NCBI RefSeq assembly: GCF_006345805.1
Contig: NC_043010.1
Span: 27,528,001 to 27,592,000, forward strand
Length of the DNA: 64,000 bases
Reading direction: 5' to 3'
Source: Octopus sinensis
Lineage: Eukaryota
Each line of letters begins with the position of its first letter. The first letter of the stretch is position 1. Position numbers and translations under genes: made by a program. Below, piece by piece: positions 7,751 through 64,000 of the stretch. The notes beneath the pieces are model-generated. The model did not search any database and was not told the DNA's origin. It saw nothing but the letters and a program-made list of their open reading frames with translations.

Positions 7751-7759
7751 GCCTATATA

Positions 7760-8107
7760 TATAATTCTTAAAATTAATATAGGTTAGGTAAAATTAAAGA
7801 ATTTTTTTCTACCAGTGGCCTAGCATCTATACAAAGTCAATAGACATATTTTTCATATAAAATTAGTGTACATTTATGTACAAAAAGGGGTGTGCCTTAA
7901 CAGGTTGCCTTACATGCTAGAAGGAACAGTTAAAAGTCCAAACGACAGTTAAGAGAAATTTCGAAGGGAAGGAAAAATTAAAATTAAAATATTTACCAAA
8001 TGTTTTTATTTTTCATTCCCTTCGAAATTGCTCATAACTGTGGTTTGGACTTTTGACTGTTCCTTCTAGCATGTAAGGCGACCTGTTAAGGTTCACCTCT
8101 TTTTGTG
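7760..8107. mobile_element. Fold-back PLE-derived element (inverted arms ~7879-7980 / 8004-8107)
   Basis: About 100 bp imperfect inverted repeat. The left terminus aatataggtt...gaattttt...accagtggcctag resembles 18015-18076. Confidence 0.6.
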
Positions 8108-16590: not shown

Positions 16591-17561
16591 GCACGCACCA
16601 TACAAGTGCACACACACCTGCGCGTGCGCACACACTTACACACACTTGTATATATGCACATGCACAAATTTGTACATATATCCACCCACATCTATTGATG
16701 CTTGATTTTTATACGTAATTACATATATAAACCAGAAAAACGTTAATTGTTAGATTATTCGATATATTTAAGTAGAACTCGACAAAGCTGTGTGGACACA
16801 TGAAAGAAGGTTCTAAGGGCTAAACACAAAAGACTTGGTGAATCATATTAAGATGCAAGAATGAAAATGTGTTGTACTTCCAGAAGAGGTGGGACGATGT
16901 GAATTCATAGCTAGGAGACCATGAGTTGTCATAAATACATGCCATAATAAAACAGTGACCCACGAACTTATGAGCGGAAATAGAAGATCTAGCAGAGAAA
17001 TATACGAGTAAGACCACCATATTAAGAGCAAAGAACAACCCTCCCCCGGCAAGTATTATACTAAAATAGTTACTGTATAGGTGGAGTGGTTGCAGTTTCA
17101 TCCTGTTTGATGTGATTGATGCATGGAAAACGGTGGGGGCGTGATTCGTGCTACGTAGGGTAAGAATGAAACGGACATTCCCTGGCATCATCACTGCTAC
17201 TCGAAATCCCTGCAGAAAGCGATAGTGTCGGAAGGTGTCGAAATCGTTGTGGTTTCCAGTCGATGACTGATGAAGAGAATATGCCATAGCGAAAGCTTCA
17301 TGTAAAAAGATTAAAATGTGTACACACGATATGATACGGGACAACTGAAGAAGGGGAATGTTCTTTATGTTGCATGCCTCGTTTCTCTGTTTTTTCGTTG
17401 TTTGAAAAAAGTTCGTTTCTATGTTTTTGTTTTTATGTTTTCGTTTCTCATTGTGTTCAACATTTTCTTTATGTCCTGTACCCATATATGCATGTATATA
17501 TACATATAGATGTCGGTATGTACATATATGTATGTATATATGCATATATTTATATATTATT

Positions 17562-17592
<31 letters not shown>

Positions 17593-17630
17593 GTATATAC
17601 ATACATACATATATATATATATATTCATAT

Positions 17631-18574
17631 AGCAAAATCAAGGAACGGCCATAATAGGCCATTCACCCACTAGAAATAACAGCCAAGGCTTCAACCGCAA
17701 AACAACAATTATTAATTCCGTAAACCAGGAAAAATTAAAAAAAACATTTACCCTGTAATTCTTTATACGATGCACCGTTTCTTCTATTGTTTAATGGTAA
17801 ACTAACCTGATTAAATTAAATCAAGCTAGTCTTCCATAGGCCGATAGATTCATCAGTAAAGAACAGCCAGATCGGAGCAGATATTTACACGAGGCACTTC
17901 TACCACTGTCTCGGCAATATCTTACCTAAAATTTTCAAATCATCGCACTCGCGCCAAATTTATCGGCAGCAAATATAAGCCGCCGATTCCATTACGGAAT
18001 TAACCAGAAAATTCATAATTAATCAATATAGGGTGGCAAAAAATTTCGCAGAATTTTTTTGCCACCAGCGGCCTAGTGGGAAAAAATTAAATAGTCATAG
18101 ACCATTTATAAATTCAACAGCAAAATCAAGGAACGGCCATAATAGGCCATTCACCCACTAGAAATAACAGCCAAGGCTTCAACCGCAAAACAACAATTAT
18201 TAATTCCGTAAACCAGGAGAAAATTTAAAAAAAAAAACATTTACCCTGTAATTCTTTATACGATGCACCGTTTCTTCTATTGTTTAATGGTAAACTAACC
18301 TGATTAAATTAAATCAAGCTAGTCTTCCATAGGCCGATAGAATTACAGGGTAAATGTTTTTTTAATTTTCTCCTGGTTTACGGAATTAATAATTGTTGTT
18401 TTGCGGTTGAAGCCTTGGCTGTTATTTCTAGTGGGTGAATGGCCTATTATGGCCGTTCCTTGATTTTGCTGTTGAATTTATAAGTGGTCTATGACTATTT
18501 AATTTTTTCCCACTAGGCCGCTGGTGGCAAAAAAATTCTGCGAAATTTTTTGCCACCCTATATTGATTAATTAT
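17631..18574 (-). mobile_element. Non-coding PLE-type element: ~490 bp partial tandem repeat plus inverted terminal arm
   Basis: 17631-17847 is repeated at 18119-18340, and 18339-18574 is the reverse complement of 18015-18255. Flanked by TA repeats; contains a hammerhead. Confidence 0.8.
17759..17863 (-). ncRNA. Type I hammerhead ribozyme
   Basis: ttcttta-CTGATGA-A.TCTAT...ATAGA.A-GAAA-CGG(TGCA)TCG-TA|taaagaa. Perfect 7-bp stem I and a GUA triplet. Confidence 0.8.
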
Positions 18575-18630
18575 ATATTCATATATATATATATATACAT
18601 ACACACATATATACATTAAATCGTTATGTT

Positions 18631-23039: not shown

Positions 23040-23378
23040 ATCAATAAATGGTGGGGTTGTGTTGCCCGCACGTGGAGAAATGATAGGCGAGGAAAAATTA
23101 TAAAAAGGCAGAACGCTAAATTGAAGGTAAATTTTAATAAAAGTGGGTGTATGGAAAATATAAGTTTATTATTACTTTTTGGAAAAAAACATTGTAAATT
23201 TCTTTTTTCCCCTTCCTCAATTTTTTAAAAATTTCTTTTCACCTTTCAATTCTTGAAAATTTGCTTTGCGATGAAAACCGATTAGAGTTAATATTTATTA
23301 AATTTTCCATACACCCATTTTTATTAAAGTTTACCTTCAATTTAGCATTCTGCCTTTTTATAATTTTTCCTCGCCTAT
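23040..23378 (+). mobile_element. Fold-back PLE-derived element (arms ~23089-23175 / 23285-23378)
   Basis: ataggcgaggaaaaattataaaaaggcaga...gtatggaaaat is inverted at the right end; a hammerhead lies in the spacer. Confidence 0.65.
23248..23289 (+). ncRNA. Minimal hammerhead, U3:A8 variant
   Basis: aattc-TTGAAAA-T.TTGC(TTT)GCGA.T-GAAA-ACCGAT-TA|gagtt. Confidence 0.55.
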
Positions 23379-24362: not shown

Positions 24363-24886
24363 GTATATTCTCTTTACTCGTTTCAGCCATGCGGTTGCGG
24401 TCATACTGGAACACCAGCGCTAAATCCGAACAGTGCGAAAGTACTCAACTATGCATTACTGGATACATATTCTTTGTTTGTTTCATGCATTAGGGAATTT
24501 ATTTAACGTTCCCATATGAAAGGCTTGATAATTGTTGAGAGATTCTTCTTTACCTCTACATGAAACCGTTGGTTGCCTTGTTAACACCGAAATAAAGTAT
24601 ATAAATGTGTGTGTGTAAATATATATATATGTTGGGGGGTGCGTGTGTGTGTGTGTATTAAAATACTGAGGGTAGAAATTGATATCAATCAATTAATATC
24701 AATTTAAAAGATCCGAAGATTTAGAAATTATTTTAAAATTAATAAGAGGAATGACCACTAAAGTGGATTTCTATACGCTAGAAATAGACGTCAAATCACC
24801 TTAACACAAAGAGCACTGGGGTTGTTGTAATCGACTAGATCCCTCCTCGAAATTGTTGTCCTTGTGCCAAAATTTTGAAACCTATA

Positions 24887-24939
<53 letters not shown>

Positions 24940-24940
<1 letters not shown>

Positions 24941-25541
24941 TTACAATTAATAAGAGGAATGACCACTAAAGCGGATTCCTATACGCTAGAAATAGACGTC
25001 AAATCACCTTAACACAAAGAGTGTGTTCTCAAGAAAGAAAAACTAGCAAACGCCAAAATGTAAAAAATAAGCAAGGCAAATGAAAATTTACAAAATAAAA
25101 CGATTACCTACGTATCTGGATTTCATTATTAATACTTGCAAAATGCAAAATGCAAGATGCAAGATGCAAGTATCTGTAAATCCTCAGCGTAGTCTGTCGT
25201 ATTTCGAAATATATTTTACAGAACTATACACAGAAACGTTTTCCCAAAATATACAGTTCTACAAAATATATTTGTGGTACTTTTCAAATGCCTCACTTTG
25301 GCGCGCTAGTGCCGAAAAACGACCCTGCAGATAATAAATTACCGCAGTTAATTCACCGGTTTGAGAACATTACGTAGGTAATCGTTTTATTTTGTAAATT
25401 TTCATTTGCCTTGCTTATTTTTTACATTTTGGCGTTTGCTGGTTTTTCTTTCTTGAGAACACACTTTTTGTGGTAAGGCGATTTGACGTCTATTTCTAGC
25501 GTATAAGAATCCACTTTAGTGGTCATTCCTCTTATTAATTG

Positions 25542-25545
<4 letters not shown>
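24940..25545 (-). mobile_element. Fold-back element with ~175 bp inverted arms (24940-25114 / 25371-25545) in (TA)n
   Basis: Arms are reverse complements and a hammerhead abuts the left arm. Partial extra copy at ~24737-24812. Confidence 0.85.
25108..25192 (-). ncRNA. Type I hammerhead ribozyme
   Basis: ctacg-CTGAGGA-T.TTA..GATACTTGCA/TGCAAGTATT..TAA.T-GAAA-TCCAGA-TA|cgtag. Confidence 0.78.
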
Positions 25546-26253: not shown

Positions 26254-26474
26254 TAAAGTGATAGTATGTTGTCAACTTAATATGACAGTCCCATGAAAGG
26301 GAAGAATGCTACTGTTGTTTAGCCCTAGGAAACACCGTTTCCTGTTGGACTTGACACATTTCCTGTGTTCTTATGTTTTCAAAGCGGAAACGGTGTTTCC
26401 TAGGGCTAAATAACAGTAGCATTCTTCCCTTTTATGGGACTGTCATATTAAGTTGACAACATGCTGTCACTTTA
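26254..26474. repeat. ~90 bp inverted repeat (MITE or fold-back)
   Basis: gttgtcaacttaatatgacagtccc...aaacaccgtttcc versus ggaaacggtgttt...gggactgtcatattaagttgacaac. Confidence 0.85.
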
Positions 26475-47199: not shown

Positions 47200-50100
47200 T
47201 CTCTATATATATAAAACTGAGAATGTGTGTCTATTTGTCTGTCTGTCTGTGGGTTTCCCTAAAACTTGAGAACTACACAACCAATTTCATTCAAATTTTA
47301 CACATGCCTTAATTAAGGTCCGGGGAGTGTCATCGGCAAAAAAATCTTAACTTTTTCCCTAGGGTGACCCCACAGCAATATCATATCTTCTCCACTATTT
47401 CAGTATTACGTGTTAAAAGTGAAACAAAAACATCTCTTTTGTAATACAGACACTTTCACTTTAATACTGAAACTATTAAAGTGAAAGTATTATATAACAG
47501 GGATGAACTATTAACAATGGTCATCCATTTTACTAGAAGAAGATCCGCTATGGTCTTATATGCTACACCTCTGGTTTTCAATTCATATTAATCAAATTAA
47601 TATTCAATTTTTCACCCTTATTATGTGCGTGTGTATTAGCAATTCGTATAAAATTGCATCAATGACTTGAACTTGAATAAGTGGTTTCACATAAATGGAG
47701 ATAAATTAAAAAGGTTTGTTGTTATTACTATTACTGTTTGACTATTGTAATCACGTTTGTTGGTTCCTCGTAAGGGAAACGTTGTTGTGTTGCATTTGTT
47801 AAATAATTGTAAACCGTAACCCTCCCCCTTTCGGAGAAGGGGCTTTGGTTATTGTTTAAAAATTGAATTGTGTCCCTGTTTGGGGAAATTGACAATATTT
47901 TCACCGTCTTTACGGAAGCATTTTTGTTAAAATGCCTTCGATAGAAGAAAGTCCAAAAATGAATTTCGCTGCAGCCGTACACTTCTATACAAGAGGGAGG
48001 ACAAGATCCAATTGATCGAAATTGCAAGAGACGGGCCTATAATTCCAGTCTGTTATATATTTTGAGTATTATTATCACTAGCGATATCAAGATATAACTT
48101 TGTATTTTGTATTTTATGTGTAGATGTATATATATAGATGTACATGTAATATGTACACATATACATACACATATATACATGCATAATATATCTACCCATA
48201 CACACATACATACACACACACACATACATAGGGGCAGGTGTGGTTGTGTGGTAACAAACTACGTTCCAAACACATGGTCCTGGGTTCAGTCCCACTGTGT
48301 GGTGACTTAGCATGTGTCTTCTGCTGTAGCCAACAAAAGCCTTCTCAGTGGATTCTGTACATATATACAGGCACACATACATATATATACTTGCATACGT
48401 ACATATTCGGCATAAACACTCTACCACTACAACTAATAACTGTTGGGAACACTGTCAAACCTGCCTTACATTCGAACCGAAATCTCAACGCCCGAGTTTT
48501 CCATCTGAAGTTAATCTCTCTCATGGAGCTCATACAAAAAGGGCAAGTCTTTGGCCCCATACAATGTGACATGTACACAATCGAGTGGCAAAAAAGGGGC
48601 CTTCCACATGCTCATATCCTGCTTTGGCTCTCAGCGAAGATCAATTCCAATGACATCGACAAGATAATCTCTTCAGAGCTTCCTGATCCAGCTTTAGACA
48701 AAGAACTATACGAAATAGTTAAAGCAAACATGGTCCATGTGGGCGTGGATTCAACATAAACACACCATGCTTGAAGGACAGCATATGTTTAAAAAGATTT
48801 CCAAGGAGGTTCCTACAAGAAACTCAGGCAGGTGCTGATGGGTATCCATCATACAGACGCAGAAAACCAGAAGACGGAGGTTTCACAGCAACTATCGGAC
48901 AGCACGATATTGATAATAGATGGATTGTTCCATACTGCCCACTCCTGTCAAAGACTTTCTATGCCCACATCAACATTGAGTTTTGCAAATCCGTTAAATC
49001 CATCAAGTACGTTTGCAAATATGTAAACAAGGGTTCTGACGCTGCAATGTTTGAACTTCAACAAGAATACTGCCAGGATTAGGTGACGCATTATCAGGTG
49101 GGACGGTACATAAGTAGCAACGAGGCTTTCTGGCGCATCTTTGGCTCCAATTCACCAACGACACCCCGCCATTCAACAGCTTGCAGTGCACCTGGAATAT
49201 GGTCAAAGAGTGTACTTCACCGATGCTAATGCTTCTCTGTTGGCAGAGGAACCAAGGGATAGCACACTCACTGCATTCTTCAAGCTTTGTCAAGTGGATC
49301 CATTCGCTCAAACCTTGCTGTATCCACAGATTCCATCGTACTACACTTGGAATGGAAAATAAATGGGCCCCACGGAAAGCAGGTCAAAATGTTCATGGAT
49401 ACCCTGGCATTAAGTTTCACACTTGCCTTGGGCGAGTATACACAGTGCATCCCACTCAACAAGAGTGCTTCTACCTTCGTCTACTACTGCATGAGGTCAG
49501 AGGATCAACGTCTTTCAGGCCCTAAAAACCGTTCATGGACATGTCTGCACAACATACAGAGAAGCCTGCTATCGACAAGGTCTGTTAGAAGATGGTGCAC
49601 AATGGGATGCAACTTTAGGAGAGGCTGCTTTATCACAATCACCTAAAAGTCTCAGGGCACTATTTGCAGTATTACTACAGGCATGCGAACTGTGTGATCC
49701 GGCCACTCTATGGCTCAAATATAGAGACAACCTGGCTGAAGACTTTCAGCGCCAAGCTCAACTGCCCTATCCTGACATGGAGGGTATCAGCAATGTAGTC
49801 TATAACAAAACACTCATTGACATTGAAGACAGAATTGCTAAACTGGGTGGAAATGAATTGTCGACGTATGGCCTGCCACAAGCATTCAGGTCAGGGTCAA
49901 ATAGCCCTCCCACTGATGTCATTCGTGAAACAACCTACAACACTCAAGCGTTTTCAAAGTACATTGTTGAAAATGAGCCTACATTACTTCCGGACCAGCT
50001 GCAGCCCTACAGAACTATTCTTAACAGTGTACGCCAACGCGAGGGACGAATCTTCTTCCTCGATGCTCCTGGAGAGACAGGTAAAACATTTATTACAAAG

Positions 50101-51520
50101 ATTCTCCTTGCAGAAGTTAGGCAGCATCAGGACATTGCAGTAGCTGTAGCCTCCTCTGGCATTGCAGCTACTTTGTTACCCGGTGGCAGGACAGCACACT
50201 CAACTTTTAAACTCCCTCTCAATTTAGCAGCATCCGAAATGCCTTCATGCAACATCAACAAAAGCTCAGATCAGAGACAAGTACTTAAAATGTGTCATCT
50301 AATTGTCTGGGATGCGTGCACTATGGCTCACAAGGGAGCTTTGGAAGCATTAGATAGAGCCCTGAAAGACATCCGAGACTGTCAGGCTCCAATGGGAGGT
50401 GTAACGCTTCTGTTGTCAGGTGATTTCAGGCAAACTCTTCCTGTCATTCCGAAAGGCACTAGAGCAGATGAAGTCCAAGCATGCCTGAATTCCTCTACCC
50501 TATGGCATCATGTTACAATCCTCAGTCTCACCACTAACATGAGAGCTCAGCCACACGGCGACAAAATGTCCACAAAGTTTACACAAGACATTTTGACACT
50601 TGGTGAAGGCAATATGCCTCTCGATGCTGCAGGACAAATGGAAGTGTGGTCATTTTCCTCTGTTGTTAATTCTGTAGATGACCTCAAAAACAAAGTCTTT
50701 CCCAACTTCACACAAAACTACCAAAATCACAATTGGCTGTGTGAAAGAGAAATATTAGCTCCAAAAAACGTCGCTGTTAACAAAATTAATCAACAGCTAA
50801 TGCATTCTCTTCCCGGCACTATACACACTTACAAGTCTGTTGATACAATTCCAGATACAAATGAAGTTGTGAACTATCCTCCTGAATTTCTCAATTCACT
50901 GGAGCCTCCTGGACTACCACCACACATATTAGCACTTAAAGTTGGAACTCCTGTAATGCTACTCCGCAATCTGGAACCACCAAGACTTTGCAATGGAACA
51001 CGATTGGTGATAAAGAAAATGATGTCACACGTTATCGAGGCGATCATTCTTTCTGGATGTGGAAAAGGTGATGACGTCTTTATTCCAAGAATTCCTCTTA
51101 CTCCATCAGGAGCAGAAATTCCATTTACATCCGGAAGACTGCAATTCCCCCTTCGTGTCAGCTTTGCCATGTGCATTAACAAATCTCAGGGTCAAATCCT
51201 CTCTGTAGCTGGTCTTCTCTTGGAAGAGCCCTGCTTCTCACATGGGCAACTGTATGTTGGCTGCTCAAGAGTAGGAACAAAAGAAACCTTTTTGTATATG
51301 CTCCACAAGGAAAAACAAGGAACATTGTTTACAACGAGGTGTTATAATCTCAACTGCCAGGAGGTATATACATGATCCCCTTTTTTTAAACAAACTTCAT
51401 GTACTTTCATGTATTTATATTAATATACATGTGTGTGTGTGTGTGTATCCATATATATATAACAGAAAAGTCTAATTCTTCAATTGAATTTAACTGGGCA
51501 ACGCCGGGTAACTCTGCTAG
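47200..51520 (+). mobile_element. Helitron, internally deleted, both termini present
   Basis: 5' TC(TCTATATATATAAAA); 3' hairpin ctgggcaacgccggg plus CTAG|T; RepHel remnants; SINE head inserted at ~48230-48360. Confidence 0.92.
48460..51340 (+). pseudogene. Helitron RepHel: HUH endonuclease plus Pif1-family helicase (frameshifted)
   Basis: EWQKRGLPHAHILLW, KYVCKYVNKG, FLDAPGETGKT, SSGIAATLL, GRTAHS, GDFRQTLPV, LCNGTRL, INKSQGQ, HGQLYV..SR. Confidence 0.93.
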
Positions 51521-55896: not shown

Positions 55897-57320
55897 AGAC
55901 AGAGAGATAGGTAGAGAGGGAGAGAGAGAGAAGGGGATACCCTTCCTATTCACCATTCATTTATTTATTTATTTAGTCATTTACCATTGTATTGGAACGG
56001 GTTTAAGGGTGGTGGCCTTTTCAAATAACAAAAAACAGGTGCGGCGTGGTCATCGTTGAATGTCTTTTTGCTTCCTCTTTCCTTCTTTTTTCCTCTTTCT
56101 TTCTTTTTCTCCTCTTCGTGTTATATTTAGAATACAACATGTACTGTCTCCTAATTTCTTTCAAACATTCAATTTTGGAGAGAATTTTTGATGAAACGCA
56201 CGTTCTGCAGGAAAACACATTAGTATAATATTTGCAAATTAAACATTTTATTAAAAATAAATAAATAAAAACAATAAAATTATATAAAAGATATAGATAT
56301 ATATAAGTAAAGCTAAAGCAGCCCAATGCTACACATATTTATATCTGAACTTTTATAGAGGTGAGCCACTTCTGGAATAAAAAATGCAAATTCTCCGCTT
56401 TACCTTTAAACATTCAATTTTGGAGAGAATCCTTTGATGAAGTGTGTGTGTCTGTGTGTGTGAGTGTGTGAGTATGTGAGTGTGCGTGTGTGTGTGTGAG
56501 TGTACGTGTGTGTGTGTGTGTTTGGGAACATGTCCACGTTTATACTGCATAACTTCGATCACGCTTCTTTCAGTTTCATGTTTTTGCATTAGAGAACATT
56601 AGTGTAACACTTACAATCTAGAGGAACACACAAACCTCTGAACATCTCAATGCCACTCATATACACCTGAATATTTACAGGGATGAGCATTATGTTTCCG
56701 ACATTTGAGTTATATTTAGAATACAAAATGTAGTCTCCGCTTTTCTCTCAAACATTCAATTTTGGAGAGAAGTTTTTGATGAAATGTAATTTCATTGCTT
56801 TTTGGTATTGCGGATCGTCCTGTGCACATTTGTAAAAGGGAAAAATTATGAATTTTCCGTCGCTGCATATTTCCAAATACTTGCGTAATTCCTCTTATCG
56901 GATATGTTGCCTGTGGATTCTTTCACGTTGGCAGAGGGAATTATTTGTTTCCCCAATGTTTAATTATTTGTTTGCAGTTTGGACATGTAATGCTGTATAT
57001 GAGGTTTTGCGTTTTGCAGTTCATATCTGCATTTATTTTGAAAAGTGATCCTCTCTTGAATTTTACGTGGGAACCACTTTCCAAGTATTTGAAGTTGTTG
57101 ATGTTGTTTGCATGTTTCACATCTCCTATCTCCACATTCTTTAACTAAGAATTCTGATTCATTCTCTGATTTGAGTTCTGCCTTTGTGAGGTGTTTTTTA
57201 AAGATTTTTTGGTTGGCGTCTGCTATTCCGTAAAGTGTTTTTGAATCAGATTTTTCATTTTTGGGCTTTGTAGGAATATAGGTAAGTTCGATTTTATGGC
57301 TTGAAAGATGAATAACCAAT
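55611..57320 (-). mobile_element. Penelope-like element 3' part (Cys-rich linker, GIY-YIG, partial tandem repeats, hammerhead)
   Basis: KECGDRRCETC, NCKTQNLIYSITCPNC, IGET, FIKNFSPKLN. The ORF end is repeated at ~56160, 56405 and 56750. Confidence 0.8.
55653..55692 (-). ncRNA. Minimal hammerhead, U3:A8 variant
   Basis: ttat-TTGACAA-GTTCGA(GAA)TCGAAC-GAAA-GCGC-TA|ataa. Confidence 0.72.
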
Positions 57321-57399
57321 ATATGTATATATACACATATACGAAAAAAAGAAATTAACTTGTATCAGCTAAACTTTCTTGAATCAATTCTCCGTGCGA

Positions 57400-60300: not shown

Positions 60301-60790
60301 TTAGTGGCGCAAAATTTCAAGCACTCTGCTATCAACCCACAAACAAACTACAGCTGAAGTACACGGGACCAGCAGGCAATGTAATCCCAGAGTCAGAGTC
60401 GGTGTGGGACCTGGGAATCCACACGAGCAACAACGCAACTTTCCATGTGCACATTGTTCAGATGGCAACACTATGCAGGCGGATGGCAGGTTGGACCCTT
60501 AGATTCTTCAGGACCAGGAACAGAGACACGAGACTTCTGCTTTGGAAAACCTTTGTACTCAGTAGTCTGGACTACTGCTCCCAATTGTGGTCTCCAAAGA
60601 GTGTAAAACAGAGTGTAAATCTAATTGCAGAAGTAGAAGCGATCCAACGCCACTACACAAAGAAAATAGACTCAGTAAAACACATGGGCTACTGGTTGAA
60701 GAAACTGGGACTCTACTCCCTGGAGAGAAGACGTGAGAGATATATAGTGCTATACATATGGAAAATAATGGAGAGCCTAGCCCCAAATTT
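57400..60790 (+). mobile_element. Near full-length decayed CR1-like LINE (5' UTR repeats, ORF1, APE, RT)
   Basis: ORF1 from 57721; APE motifs Y.PP, LMGELNFP, NILDL, SDH; RT motifs NYRPVSLTS, YLDFAKAFDKVDH, DLG, LDYCSQLWSP, LYSLERRRERY. Confidence 0.88.
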
Positions 60791-62030
60791 CATAAGTACT
60801 ATAGTATTTGCAGCAAGTCAACGATCAAGTTCCCTTACTCTGTAATACCTAACTTTGCTTCGATTATTGCATCAATCAATAGAAGCAAGCTTGCTGGGCA
60901 GGATAGCTGGAAAAGTTCCTTTGAGGATGACCAAGGACCTACGAATAATAATTCTGTAACGCTTAATGCCAATTGTACAAACAGTCTGCCTTTACCGGGT
61001 CTATCGAACCCAAGTAATAAGGGAAGATTTGATGGAATGAAAGAGGGAAACCTGTCTAGAACTGATGATACAAAAAGTAAAGGTAACAATAGAAATAAAA
61101 CAAGGAAAGGCCCCGGGATGAAATATAATTGTAGAAACCTCGAATTATGTCCCTTAGATGGTTCCTGTCCAGTTACTAACGTCATATATAAATGTGTAGT
61201 CAAGGACGAGGATGAGTTAAATAAATTTTATATAGGTAGCACGGTAGATTTTAAGGCTAGATATAGATCGCATATGAGCTCATTTTCTAACGATAAATAT
61301 TGTAATTCAACAACACTTGCATCCCATATACATAATTTGAAGAAGAAGAAGAAGAAGAAGAAGAAGAAGAAGAAGAAGAATTATCTAGAATGGTCTATTA
61401 TCTCAAAAACCCCAAATTTCAAAGGAAATATTAGCAAGTGTAAGCTGTGCATAAGGGAATCCCTTACCATCCTCGGGTGTTATGGACCACACACTCTGAA
61501 TAAATTTACTGATGTGATTCCTTTTTGCATCCATAAATTTTCATCTACGTTCTTAAAAGTGTATAGGAATAAAAAAAGTTGTAGCAAGTAAATAATTTAG
61601 CTCTTACAGGGAATTGAAACCATCGAGGTTGAATTTAATTTAATACACCCATTTATATTGGTTTTTTTAAAGGTTTTTTTTTAACTGTTTTAATTCTGGG
61701 TTTTTTTTTTCGATTATTTGGGCTGGTCTAAGCATGACTTCTTAAATAAGAAACCACGCAGTATTGTGTTAGGTTTGGTTAAGGAGGTCTCACCCTGGTA
61801 CGTGATGTCTGTTTCTTTATTTTTCCCCTGACGAAGGAGTCATTATCGTGATGCGCCCCCGTGCATTAAATACGGTGATGTACCCCTGAAATGGCCATAG
61901 GGAATGTAAATATGGTTTCTTCTTTTTTTGCTTGGACACTGGCTTTTAACTATAGGTTTCCCTTATCTTGAAAAGTAATTTTTAATCGAAAAAATTTCTA
62001 AACGATGAACTTTTATCTTACCTTATATAT
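60790..62030 (+). mobile_element. Penelope-like element 3' part (GIY-YIG ORF to 61591 plus pLTR), joined to the CR1 end
   Basis: NCRNLELCPLDGSCPVTNVIYKC...FYIGST..FKARY..H...CKLCIRE...LN...C.H; a poly-K (AAG)n expansion lies in frame. Confidence 0.88.
61823..61904 (+). ncRNA. Type I hammerhead ribozyme in PLE 3' pLTR
   Basis: ttccc-CTGACGA-AGG..CATTATCG/CGGTGATG..CCT-GAAA-TGGCCA-TA|gggaa. Confidence 0.82.
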
Positions 62031-62382
62031 TATTTATTTATATGCTTCCTACATATATGTATTTTTATATATTTTTATATATCTATATACGTATATATTT
62101 CTTTATATTTTTATGTATTTATTATTCTAGGTGTTGTAATGTTAAAAAAATATATAATATTTAGTCGCTAAAGTATTAATCATTAACTTTTAACCGCAAT
62201 GAACTGTATTCACACATTTTTCTTTTATTTTTCTTATATGCTTGTATTGATGAGTTGTGTTTCATCCTCCGTGGTTTTATGCATGTATATTCTATATGAA
62301 AGAAAAAGCATTATGTGATTCAATGTTCGAGATATGAAATGTTACGTGGATGACCTTATATTTGTTTGTTCTGCAACTATAG

Positions 62383-62430
<48 letters not shown>

Positions 62431-62829: not shown

Positions 62830-64000
62830 AAAAAACCAAGGAAGAAACAATCCTGGTTTCATTTGATGTAGTCAACTTGTATACCAGTATACCTCACATT
62901 ATGGACTGGAGGCAATACAGTTCTGGTTAGACCAATTTCCGGAAGAAATACCAAAAAGGATCAGTAAGGAATTCATTACTAAATCAATTGAATTCATCCT
63001 ACACAATAACCACTTCATGTTTGACAATACATTTTACCGTCAAAAATCCGGAATTGCTATGGGTACAAGGGCAGCACCAGTCATTGCGAACTTAACAATG
63101 GGATACATGGAAATAATCATTTACCAGGAATCTCTATCAATCTTTGGAAACTCCCTCTCTCAATACATAAAAGAGAATTGGAAACGATTCCTAGACGATT
63201 GTTTCATTCTCTGGAATGAAAACATAGATAAACTCCAAAAATTTAAAAACCTATTGAACAGCATAAACCCAAATATACAGTTCACAATGGAATACAACCA
63301 AAAGGAGCTCCCGTTCTTGGATATACTAATTAAAAAAATTAACCTTAAAATAGAAACAGACATTTTTTACAAAGCCACAGACGCCAAACAATACCTTCTT
63401 TTTAATTCATGCCACCCAAGACACACTAAAACAAACATCCCCTTCAACCTTGCAAGAAGGATATGCACAATAGTGTCAGAACAAAATACCAGGAACTTTA
63501 GACTGCAAGAACTCAAAAACACCCTAATTGACAGACATTACCCAGCTCAACTCATAGAGGATGGGATCAGACGTGCAACAGAAATCAACATAGAAACTTT
63601 AAGAAAAGTTCAACACAACAACACACCTTCCCCGAAAATACTACCTTACATATCTACATACAACCCCAGAAACAAAGAAGCCTTCACCATCATCACCCAG
63701 AATTTACCAATACTTCATAAAAACCCAAAATTAAAGGAAATTCTAAACATACACCAAATCATTAAAAGCTACAAACAGCCTAAATCACTAAAAAGATTCT
63801 CACAAAGGCAAAATTGTCTTCTAAAATTACGGATGCAAAAGTAAAAAAATGTGGTAGATCGAACTGTGCAACATGTCCTAACCTATTGGAAGGATCAGAA
63901 TTCTTCTTTAAAGAGGGACAGAAATTCAAGATCAAATCTAACTTTACTTGTGCCTCTGAAAACATAATTTATGTCATTAAATGCTCGGGCTGCCACCAAG
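62830..64000 (+). mobile_element. Penelope-like element RT, linker and start of GIY-YIG (frameshifted; runs off the window)
   Basis: LVSFDVVNLYTSIP, YRQKSGIAMGT, WKRFLDD, LPFLD, SCHP, KKCGRSNCATC, FTCASENIIYVIKCSGC. Confidence 0.93.

Follow-up and report, generated by a model that had tools for sequence, protein, structure and literature searches.

What kind of mobile sequence leaves two stretches of a short hammerhead ribozyme repeat head to head, with the junction between them almost at the site where the ribozyme is predicted to cut its own RNA? This question is raised by positions 17631-18574 of the window (the whole 64,000-nt stretch of the Octopus sinensis genome analysed here). Our reading, to which we give a probability of roughly 0.7, is that the locus is one insertion of an ORF-less hammerhead repeat, likely a non-autonomous Penelope-like element (a non-LTR retrozyme) that borrows a Neptune-type RT-endonuclease.

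Structure of the locus

The window copy consists of two head-to-head arms inside (TA)-rich tracts (Table 1). The long arm, read from 18341 to 17631, has its 5' end at unit position c273 and its 3' end at a point designated S, adjoining (TA)n. Its 711 nt of a 488-nt unit agree with the 1.45 tandem units of the original prediction, and the 236-nt inverted arm at 18339-18574 was likewise found where it had been placed, head to head with the long arm. This second arm begins AGAATTAC, 3 nt 3' of the predicted cut as had been claimed (3-6 nt allowing for the microhomology), and over 236 nt the two arms are one substitution and one homopolymer indel apart. The absence of a credible coding ORF was also borne out: the six-frame search of the copy returned no ORF, with stop-free stretches of at most 60 aa and ATG-initiated frames of at most 29 aa. 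The GC content of the unit is 36%, and no target-site duplication is distinguishable at this copy within the (TA)-rich repeat. Elsewhere in the window, positions 7757-7823 resemble the tail region weakly (73%) and may be an old fragment.

Table 1. Coordinates (window numbering) of the insertion, its ribozyme and the coding element in the same window; c, position in the unit.
Feature	Position	Strand	Remarks
Left flank	17485..17630	.	(TA)-rich microsatellite target
Long arm	17631..18341	-	711 nt = 1.45 units, unit 488 nt
Complete type I hammerhead	17759..17863	-	consensus elements, fold, covariation
Hammerhead stem I	17863-17857 with 17765-17759	-	TTCTTTA/TAAAGAA
Hammerhead core CTGATGA	17856-17850	-
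Hammerhead stem II, long (~68 nt)	17849-17782	-	A·A at base
Hammerhead GAAA	17781-17778	-
Hammerhead stem III	17777-17768	-	near-palindromic
Hammerhead U16.1, A17	17767, 17766	-
Predicted self-cleavage site	17766/17765	-	unit c355/c356
Internal tail-segment copy (c1-c106)	18015..18118	-	hairpin 18032-18066
Truncated second hammerhead	18252..18341	-	cut site 18259/18258
Head-to-head junction	18339..18341	.	3-nt microhomology AGA shared by both arms
Inverted arm	18339..18574	+	236 nt; c359 to tail end T (c106)
Tail, S to T, ~105 nt	18471..18574	+	contains 12-bp hairpin 18523-18557
Right flank	18575..18617	.	(TA)-rich microsatellite target
Coding Neptune-like element, 3' end	60737-62385		Cys motif and GIY-YIG domain, end in (TA)n

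The cut at 17766/17765 is placed where we take the hammerhead consensus to put it. The fold is unusually stable (z = -4.3; none of 200 shuffles was equally stable), and stems I and II carry compensatory changes, as expected of a structure under selection: covariation on both sides was seen at 7 of 36 pairs, with 16 distinct variants, among related sequences, so that no probability is implied. In 202 scored units of a young subfamily (see below) the core is nearly invariant. The ribozyme had been described as intact. One complete hammerhead does stand (17863 to 17759), with its stem II closed by an A·A mismatch; that of the second unit is truncated, retaining only the 3' half and missing the 5' strand of stem I and CUGAUGA, with the unit starting at 18341, directly past the core CTGATGAA. 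Among 58 complete units of the window subfamily the closing pair of stem II is A-U in 31, A·C in 22 and A·A in 5. A scan with the Rfam covariance models gave no hammerhead match at E values up to 10, probably because of the long stem II. With a single complete ribozyme, and with an inverted arm expected to pair back onto its transcript, the locus should be a poor source of monomers. The window copy is an ordinary and probably inactive member of its family, probably a dead-end product.

A dispersed family without coding capacity

A DNA search of the 2.72-Gb, microsatellite-rich genome gave 1604 candidates, of which 40 were scored. Exact patterns of the window subfamily, the older one, matched at 126 places and those of the young subfamily at 762; the latter shares about 85% identity with the window copy, and its own members are 99% alike. 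Exact end matches running into TA numbered 137 for young S ends and, genome-wide, at least 546 for T ends. In the family loci a short unit with a type I hammerhead is repeated in tandem (the window locus has one complete ribozyme), and the flanks are (TA)n, an AT-rich microsatellite target. In the window copy and the loci read there is neither coding capacity nor LTRs, and the RT plus GIY-YIG ORF of an autonomous Penelope-like element is absent. Contigs from three runs that we guess to be RNA carry the family, with many letters typical of the young subfamily, although contigs cannot show strand, ends or circles. The proposal of a retrozyme-like family mobilised by Penelope-like elements is upheld in part, as a dispersed, tandem, ORF-less hammerhead family whose mobilisation is most likely Penelope-like.

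The young subfamily, which is very young, has a 491-nt unit (L221, L231-L260, L266-L345), an A-U closure of stem II and a perfectly palindromic stem III, and would be the best experimental material. At one locus (L425) an entire S+T palindrome has been tandemly duplicated with an identical junction.

Two fixed ends and strict polarity

What escaped the original prediction, which had the inversion, is that the outer ends are fixed and strictly paired. The outer end of an arm lies at S or, about 105 nt beyond it, at T, and the segment between the two contains a strong hairpin. Head-to-head copies with one S and one T end were counted at 144 loci across three samples, while S+S and T+T copies numbered zero (overlapping records of one locus were collapsed to one). 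In the older subfamily 52 of 81 loci are head to head; the 51 palindromes scored (leaving aside the hand-scored locus C13 and two 'other' loci) comprised 44 S+T, no S+S, no T+T and seven with one atypical end. The young sample ascertained through S (n = 88; two arms without a visible 5' end were left out) contained 67 S+T loci, four pairing S with a tiny T arm, one complex locus and no S+S; the partner end lay beyond the stretch in five, nine were single and two unknown. Ascertainment through T yielded 45 new loci (five duplicates, one unparsed and two run-out arms excluded), 33 of them T+S and none T+T. Thus the insertions have fixed 3' ends, an optional tail, variable 5' truncation and an inverted 5'-truncated copy, and the overlaps between arms at the junction are mostly 1-9 nt.

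One template for each insertion

A single haplotype runs through all the units of an insertion and through both of its arms. Substitutions among young loci amount to 0.36% within a locus (tandem units and opposite arms) vs 2.05% between loci, and in the older subfamily to 1.1% vs 4.7%. The 33 arrays with at least three passes represent 26 haplotypes, and 27 of them have no mosaic column. Since 26 haplotypes are each fixed array-wide, a monomer bottleneck followed by multimerisation is needed, and we infer that rolling copying of a circle gives both directly; a rolling-copy model of this kind is proposed in the available text of PMC7229834.

The same element and enzyme could instead have used a linear read-through multimer, without a circle, its 5' end being whichever hammerhead had cut, a reading that we regard as unlikely, though far from negligible. 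It would account for the few mosaic arrays (6 of 33; L013, L120, L124 among them), for a stop rate at the cut site that is constant at about 13% per pass, as partial cleavage would produce, and for a deletion at locus L306 that ends at the cut in both arms and is absent from the upstream unit. However, the fixed haplotypes would still require a monomer-to-multimer step, opposite-arm units in the same register are no closer than those in another register (0.34% vs 0.40%, p = 0.25), and the stop rate stays flat with length up to 5.7 kb.

The two arms can also be compared with each other. For 39 of 111 pairs, copying of one arm from the other as DNA is impossible in either direction, which means that RNA templated both. 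The unrolled 5' end is common to both arms within 25 nt in 20 of 67 and 10 of 44 pairs (permutation, 3.1 and 2.7), or 30 of 111 pooled with about 6 expected, and in each of the nine pairs whose two ends both lie near the cut, the arms agree in register. These shared ends point to one RNA read twice or, in that subset, to fold-back. Single priming, with the cDNA folding back to build the second arm and the endonuclease resolving it at the other fixed site, has been put forward as self-priming in the part of PMC3846280 that bears on this, and agrees with the nested palindrome of L306 and with an excess of near-symmetric junctions within 5 nt (16 of 72 vs 3.0; 7 of 44 vs 1.1). As a general explanation it is nonetheless improbable, and its pure form fails on the 39 pairs above, in which either arm contains sequence that the other lacks and which are no rarer than under permutation; fold-back accounts for a subset at most.

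Break points at the predicted cut site

Copying from a self-cut RNA would leave arm 5' ends just 3' of the scissile bond. Of 159 such ends in the young subfamily, 21 are at +1..+10 from the cut, where a hazard model expects 3.4 (p = 5e-11). This is the top 10-nt window of the unit (the 99.9% maximum of the null for any window is 14); only two ends lie at -9..0, just 5' of the cut, and 44 fall at +1..+30 vs 10.8 expected. An independent sample picked through T has 6 of 77 ends at +1..+10 vs 1.7 expected (p = 0.007). In the older subfamily of the window itself the signal is weak, with 6 of 131 at +1..+10 vs 3.0 (p = 0.08) and 16 at +1..+30 vs 9.2 (p = 0.02); a first junction test in that subfamily had found 3 of 131 within 3 nt and 6 within 5 nt (p = 0.08), and the view that the junction lies near the cut by coincidence was dropped after the larger young sample. 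The geometry noticed at the window junction is supported at the level of the family, as an accumulation of genomic 5' ends that bears on self-cleavage indirectly at most, and is weak in the window's own subfamily.

The accumulation is a bias rather than a rule, as about 87% of passes cross the site and about 13% stop. Stops per pass (16/138, 13/73, 15/115) are as frequent in later passes, which counts against a circular template, since a circle paired with its cDNA should not refold the ribozyme. Where passes cross the cut they do so without a seam (about 280 passes, with 0-2 small indels at each position), and template jumping across the cut was rejected for want of an indel excess there. Two loci (L111, L398) whose arms appeared to start exactly at the cut proved to be alignment overruns.

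Polymerase stalling at the folded ribozyme, or AT-rich microhomology, could also gather ends near this site, and we hold it improbable that they rather than cleavage explain the pile-up. Two further 5'-end hotspots speak for them and against a pure cleavage reading: c51-63, at the 5' base of the tail hairpin (14 vs 4.2 expected), and the T-run c381-395, 16-30 nt past the cut (21 vs 5.5). Stem III, moreover, ends 2 nt from the cut. Yet the edge of the pile-up is the scissile bond itself: strict calling in the young subfamily gives 19 ends 3' of the cut vs one 5' of it, with four exactly at +1 (in three loci) and none at -3..0, and the stronger stem II and tail hairpin have no pile-up on their 3' side. 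Two of the 21 ends, and two of the four at +1, are borders of an internal deletion in the complex locus L306, which is to be set against the cleavage reading. On this evidence cleavage probably causes the pile-up, which is then likely the genomic footprint of Penelope-like enzymes copying self-cut RNA.

The locus just mentioned (L306:3169-4582, oriented; G000:C4 near 144290761) is a nested palindrome in which both arms are without c228-c365. The deletion ends exactly at the predicted cut, and a possible origin is a template jump from the cut 5' end, copied into both arms.

Proposed mechanism

The preferred reading, an ORF-less repeat moved by a borrowed Neptune-type enzyme, can be put in four steps. 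Transcripts of multi-unit arrays would be cut by the hammerhead and the monomers ligated into circles, a step to which we give a little better than even odds. The enzyme would then nick both (TA)n strands and prime cDNAs at S and at T, on the same RNA or on an identical sister, which we consider probable. Both cDNAs would run 5'-ward, mostly through the cut site, yielding tandem units, with about 13% of passes ending at, or just short of, the cut 5' end. Finally, short microhomology would join the two cDNA 3' ends into a head-to-head palindrome. In L1 twin priming two primers likewise produce an inversion with a microhomology junction; in the present family, unlike in L1, the two starts are internal and fixed, and the template stretches of the arms usually overlap.

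The most specific version is offered tentatively, at somewhat less than even odds. In it a dimeric enzyme primes both ends of the (TA)n break from a single circular or ribozyme-cut monomer RNA, always using one of two non-equivalent internal sites for one strand and the other site for the second strand; it then rolls through the unit and stops by preference at the 5' end that the ribozyme has made. Were this version true, the genome would attest directly that a self-cut, circular RNA is the form in which animal retrozymes spread and that the hammerhead is active in vivo in the course of Penelope-type transposition. In the available text of PMC11167929 a Penelope-like protein in vitro cuts and extends both strands, with two internal starts delimiting a tail, and we count this two-site, both-strand priming in favour of the mechanism. 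According to the same text, ribozyme cleavage can be dispensed with in vitro and RNA-seq gave no reads that end at the site, which goes against the mechanism.

Candidate drivers

A first look at the genome yielded 19,292 candidate coding Penelope-like elements in which a Cys motif precedes a C-terminal GIY-YIG domain, an arrangement that PMC8557442, in the part concerned, gives for Neptune and Nematis. Of these candidates 150 were scored; the name Neptune is used here on motif layout without a tree, and the GIY-YIG domains score lower than the Pfam cut-off. One such element lies in the window (60737-62385) and has a 3' hammerhead at about 61822-61905 with a long stem II and an A-U closing pair; its relatives have a second end 87-97 nt further on. 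It has its geometry, though not its sequence, in common with the ~490-nt unit. That coding elements of this layout in the genome carry a hammerhead, (TA)n ends and a second end counts for the preferred reading. Additional Penelope-type RT and linker fragments are present at 62867-64000 and 56963-57364.

The genome-wide search proposed earlier, for arrays and for an ORF-bearing parent, thus found the arrays, whereas no coding element similar in sequence to the unit turned up in 105 Penelope-like records (some overlapping, and a small part of the candidates). Matches of two loci (L221, L167) that were considered as coding parents are independent palindromic insertions in neighbouring TA runs. 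That the copies are pLTR debris of an as yet unfound coding element is very improbable. Tandem units, an inverted copy and a tail are the standard pLTR layout in the text of PMC8557442 available to us, and the parent search covered part of the candidates (150 scored of 19,292); against this, arrays reach 11.6 units without an ORF (L269), no arm among the sampled loci continues into an ORF and Penelope-like protein matches near family loci sit outside the arms. An assembly artefact from fold-back reads is scarcely credible as the source of the inversion: no contig examined from the three presumed RNA runs spans the window junction, but the window arms are asymmetric (starts c273 vs c359, ends S vs T) and the pairing rule is common to 144 loci with differing junctions.

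Relation to known elements

In the accessible parts of PMC7229834 and bioRxiv 10.64898/2026.07.22.740005, metazoan non-LTR retrozymes are, like this family, short low-GC tandem units with one type I hammerhead each, ORF-less, dispersed and co-occurring with Penelope-like elements; the preprint argues from this co-occurrence and from pLTR similarity that animal retrozymes are non-autonomous Penelope-like sequences. The present family differs in its unit of ~490 nt with a ~68-nt stem II, in that no pLTR sister was found among the 105 records, and in that most copies are head to head, their ends fixed at S and T (the word 'inverted' is absent from the available text of PMC7229834). The likeness is known here from genomic DNA, while circular RNA is a feature of the known retrozymes as these sources present them.

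EN+ Penelope-like elements of Neptune-type layout, as far as covered by the available portions of PMC8557442, PMC3846280 and PMC4209133, also have partial tandems, an inverted 5'-truncated copy, a one-ended tail, a (TA)n target and a hammerhead with a palindromic helix III; the last of these also covers dimeric action and opposite-strand ribozyme pairs. Unlike them, the family has no ORF, its tail is ~105 nt instead of the 30-40 bp known at one inverted repeat (PMC8557442, PMC3846280, same portions), the A10.1-U11.1 pair or a mismatch replaces their usual G-C, and its polarity is strict where the three texts say 'optional' or 'often'. Poseidon PAc in vitro (PMC11167929, available text) shares two internal starts bounding the tail, an AT-rich target, a stem-loop at the start region and the use of uncut RNA in most passes; in contrast to that study, which has no sign of cleavage in vivo, genomic 5' ends here mark the predicted cut. 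Non-autonomous Chlamys elements such as MRC1 (PMC8557442, part concerned) are likewise Penelope-like with multicopy head-to-tail insertions, but have no canonical hammerheads and have 3' ends resembling autonomous partners, whereas no partner was found for this family.

The available text of PMC12602865 contains nothing on tails or ribozymes, and strict end polarity, a ~105-nt tail and 5' ends at the cut were not found in the literature searched, which comprised the main texts of openly accessible papers. The kind of element is already known; the strict polarity, long tail and cut-site footprint are apparently new, though an earlier description may exist. The origin of inverted, tailed Penelope-like insertions, retrozyme mobilisation and the role of the hammerhead are stated to be open in the sections seen of PMC8557442, PMC11167929 and bioRxiv 10.64898/2026.07.22.740005. 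The value of the locus lies in these family-wide mechanistic footprints rather than in the window copy: young insertions of a 490-nt substrate, almost identical and numbering in the hundreds, with defined starts, a one-S-one-T rule and a footprint at the cut, amount to quantitative predictions suited to a small in vitro system.

Other elements in the window

A second hammerhead family at 24660-25545 had been described as quite diverged from the ~490-nt family with the same geometry. The geometry is confirmed; there is no BLAST similarity between the two, so that they are better called unrelated. This family also has two ends, 87-106 nt apart. Its palindrome at 24939-25545 ends S+S, relatives (L033, L041, L052, L053) reading S+T, and the junction overlap TACGTAGGTA spans the predicted cut 25113/25112; a further fragment with a tail end stands apart at 24660-24813. 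Also in the window are two more elements with inverted repeats, at 23083-23378 and 26254-26474, whose arms measure 81 and 96 nt. Finally, a 626-aa open frame at 49495-51372 resembles what we take, from its motifs, to be a Helitron PIF1-type helicase.
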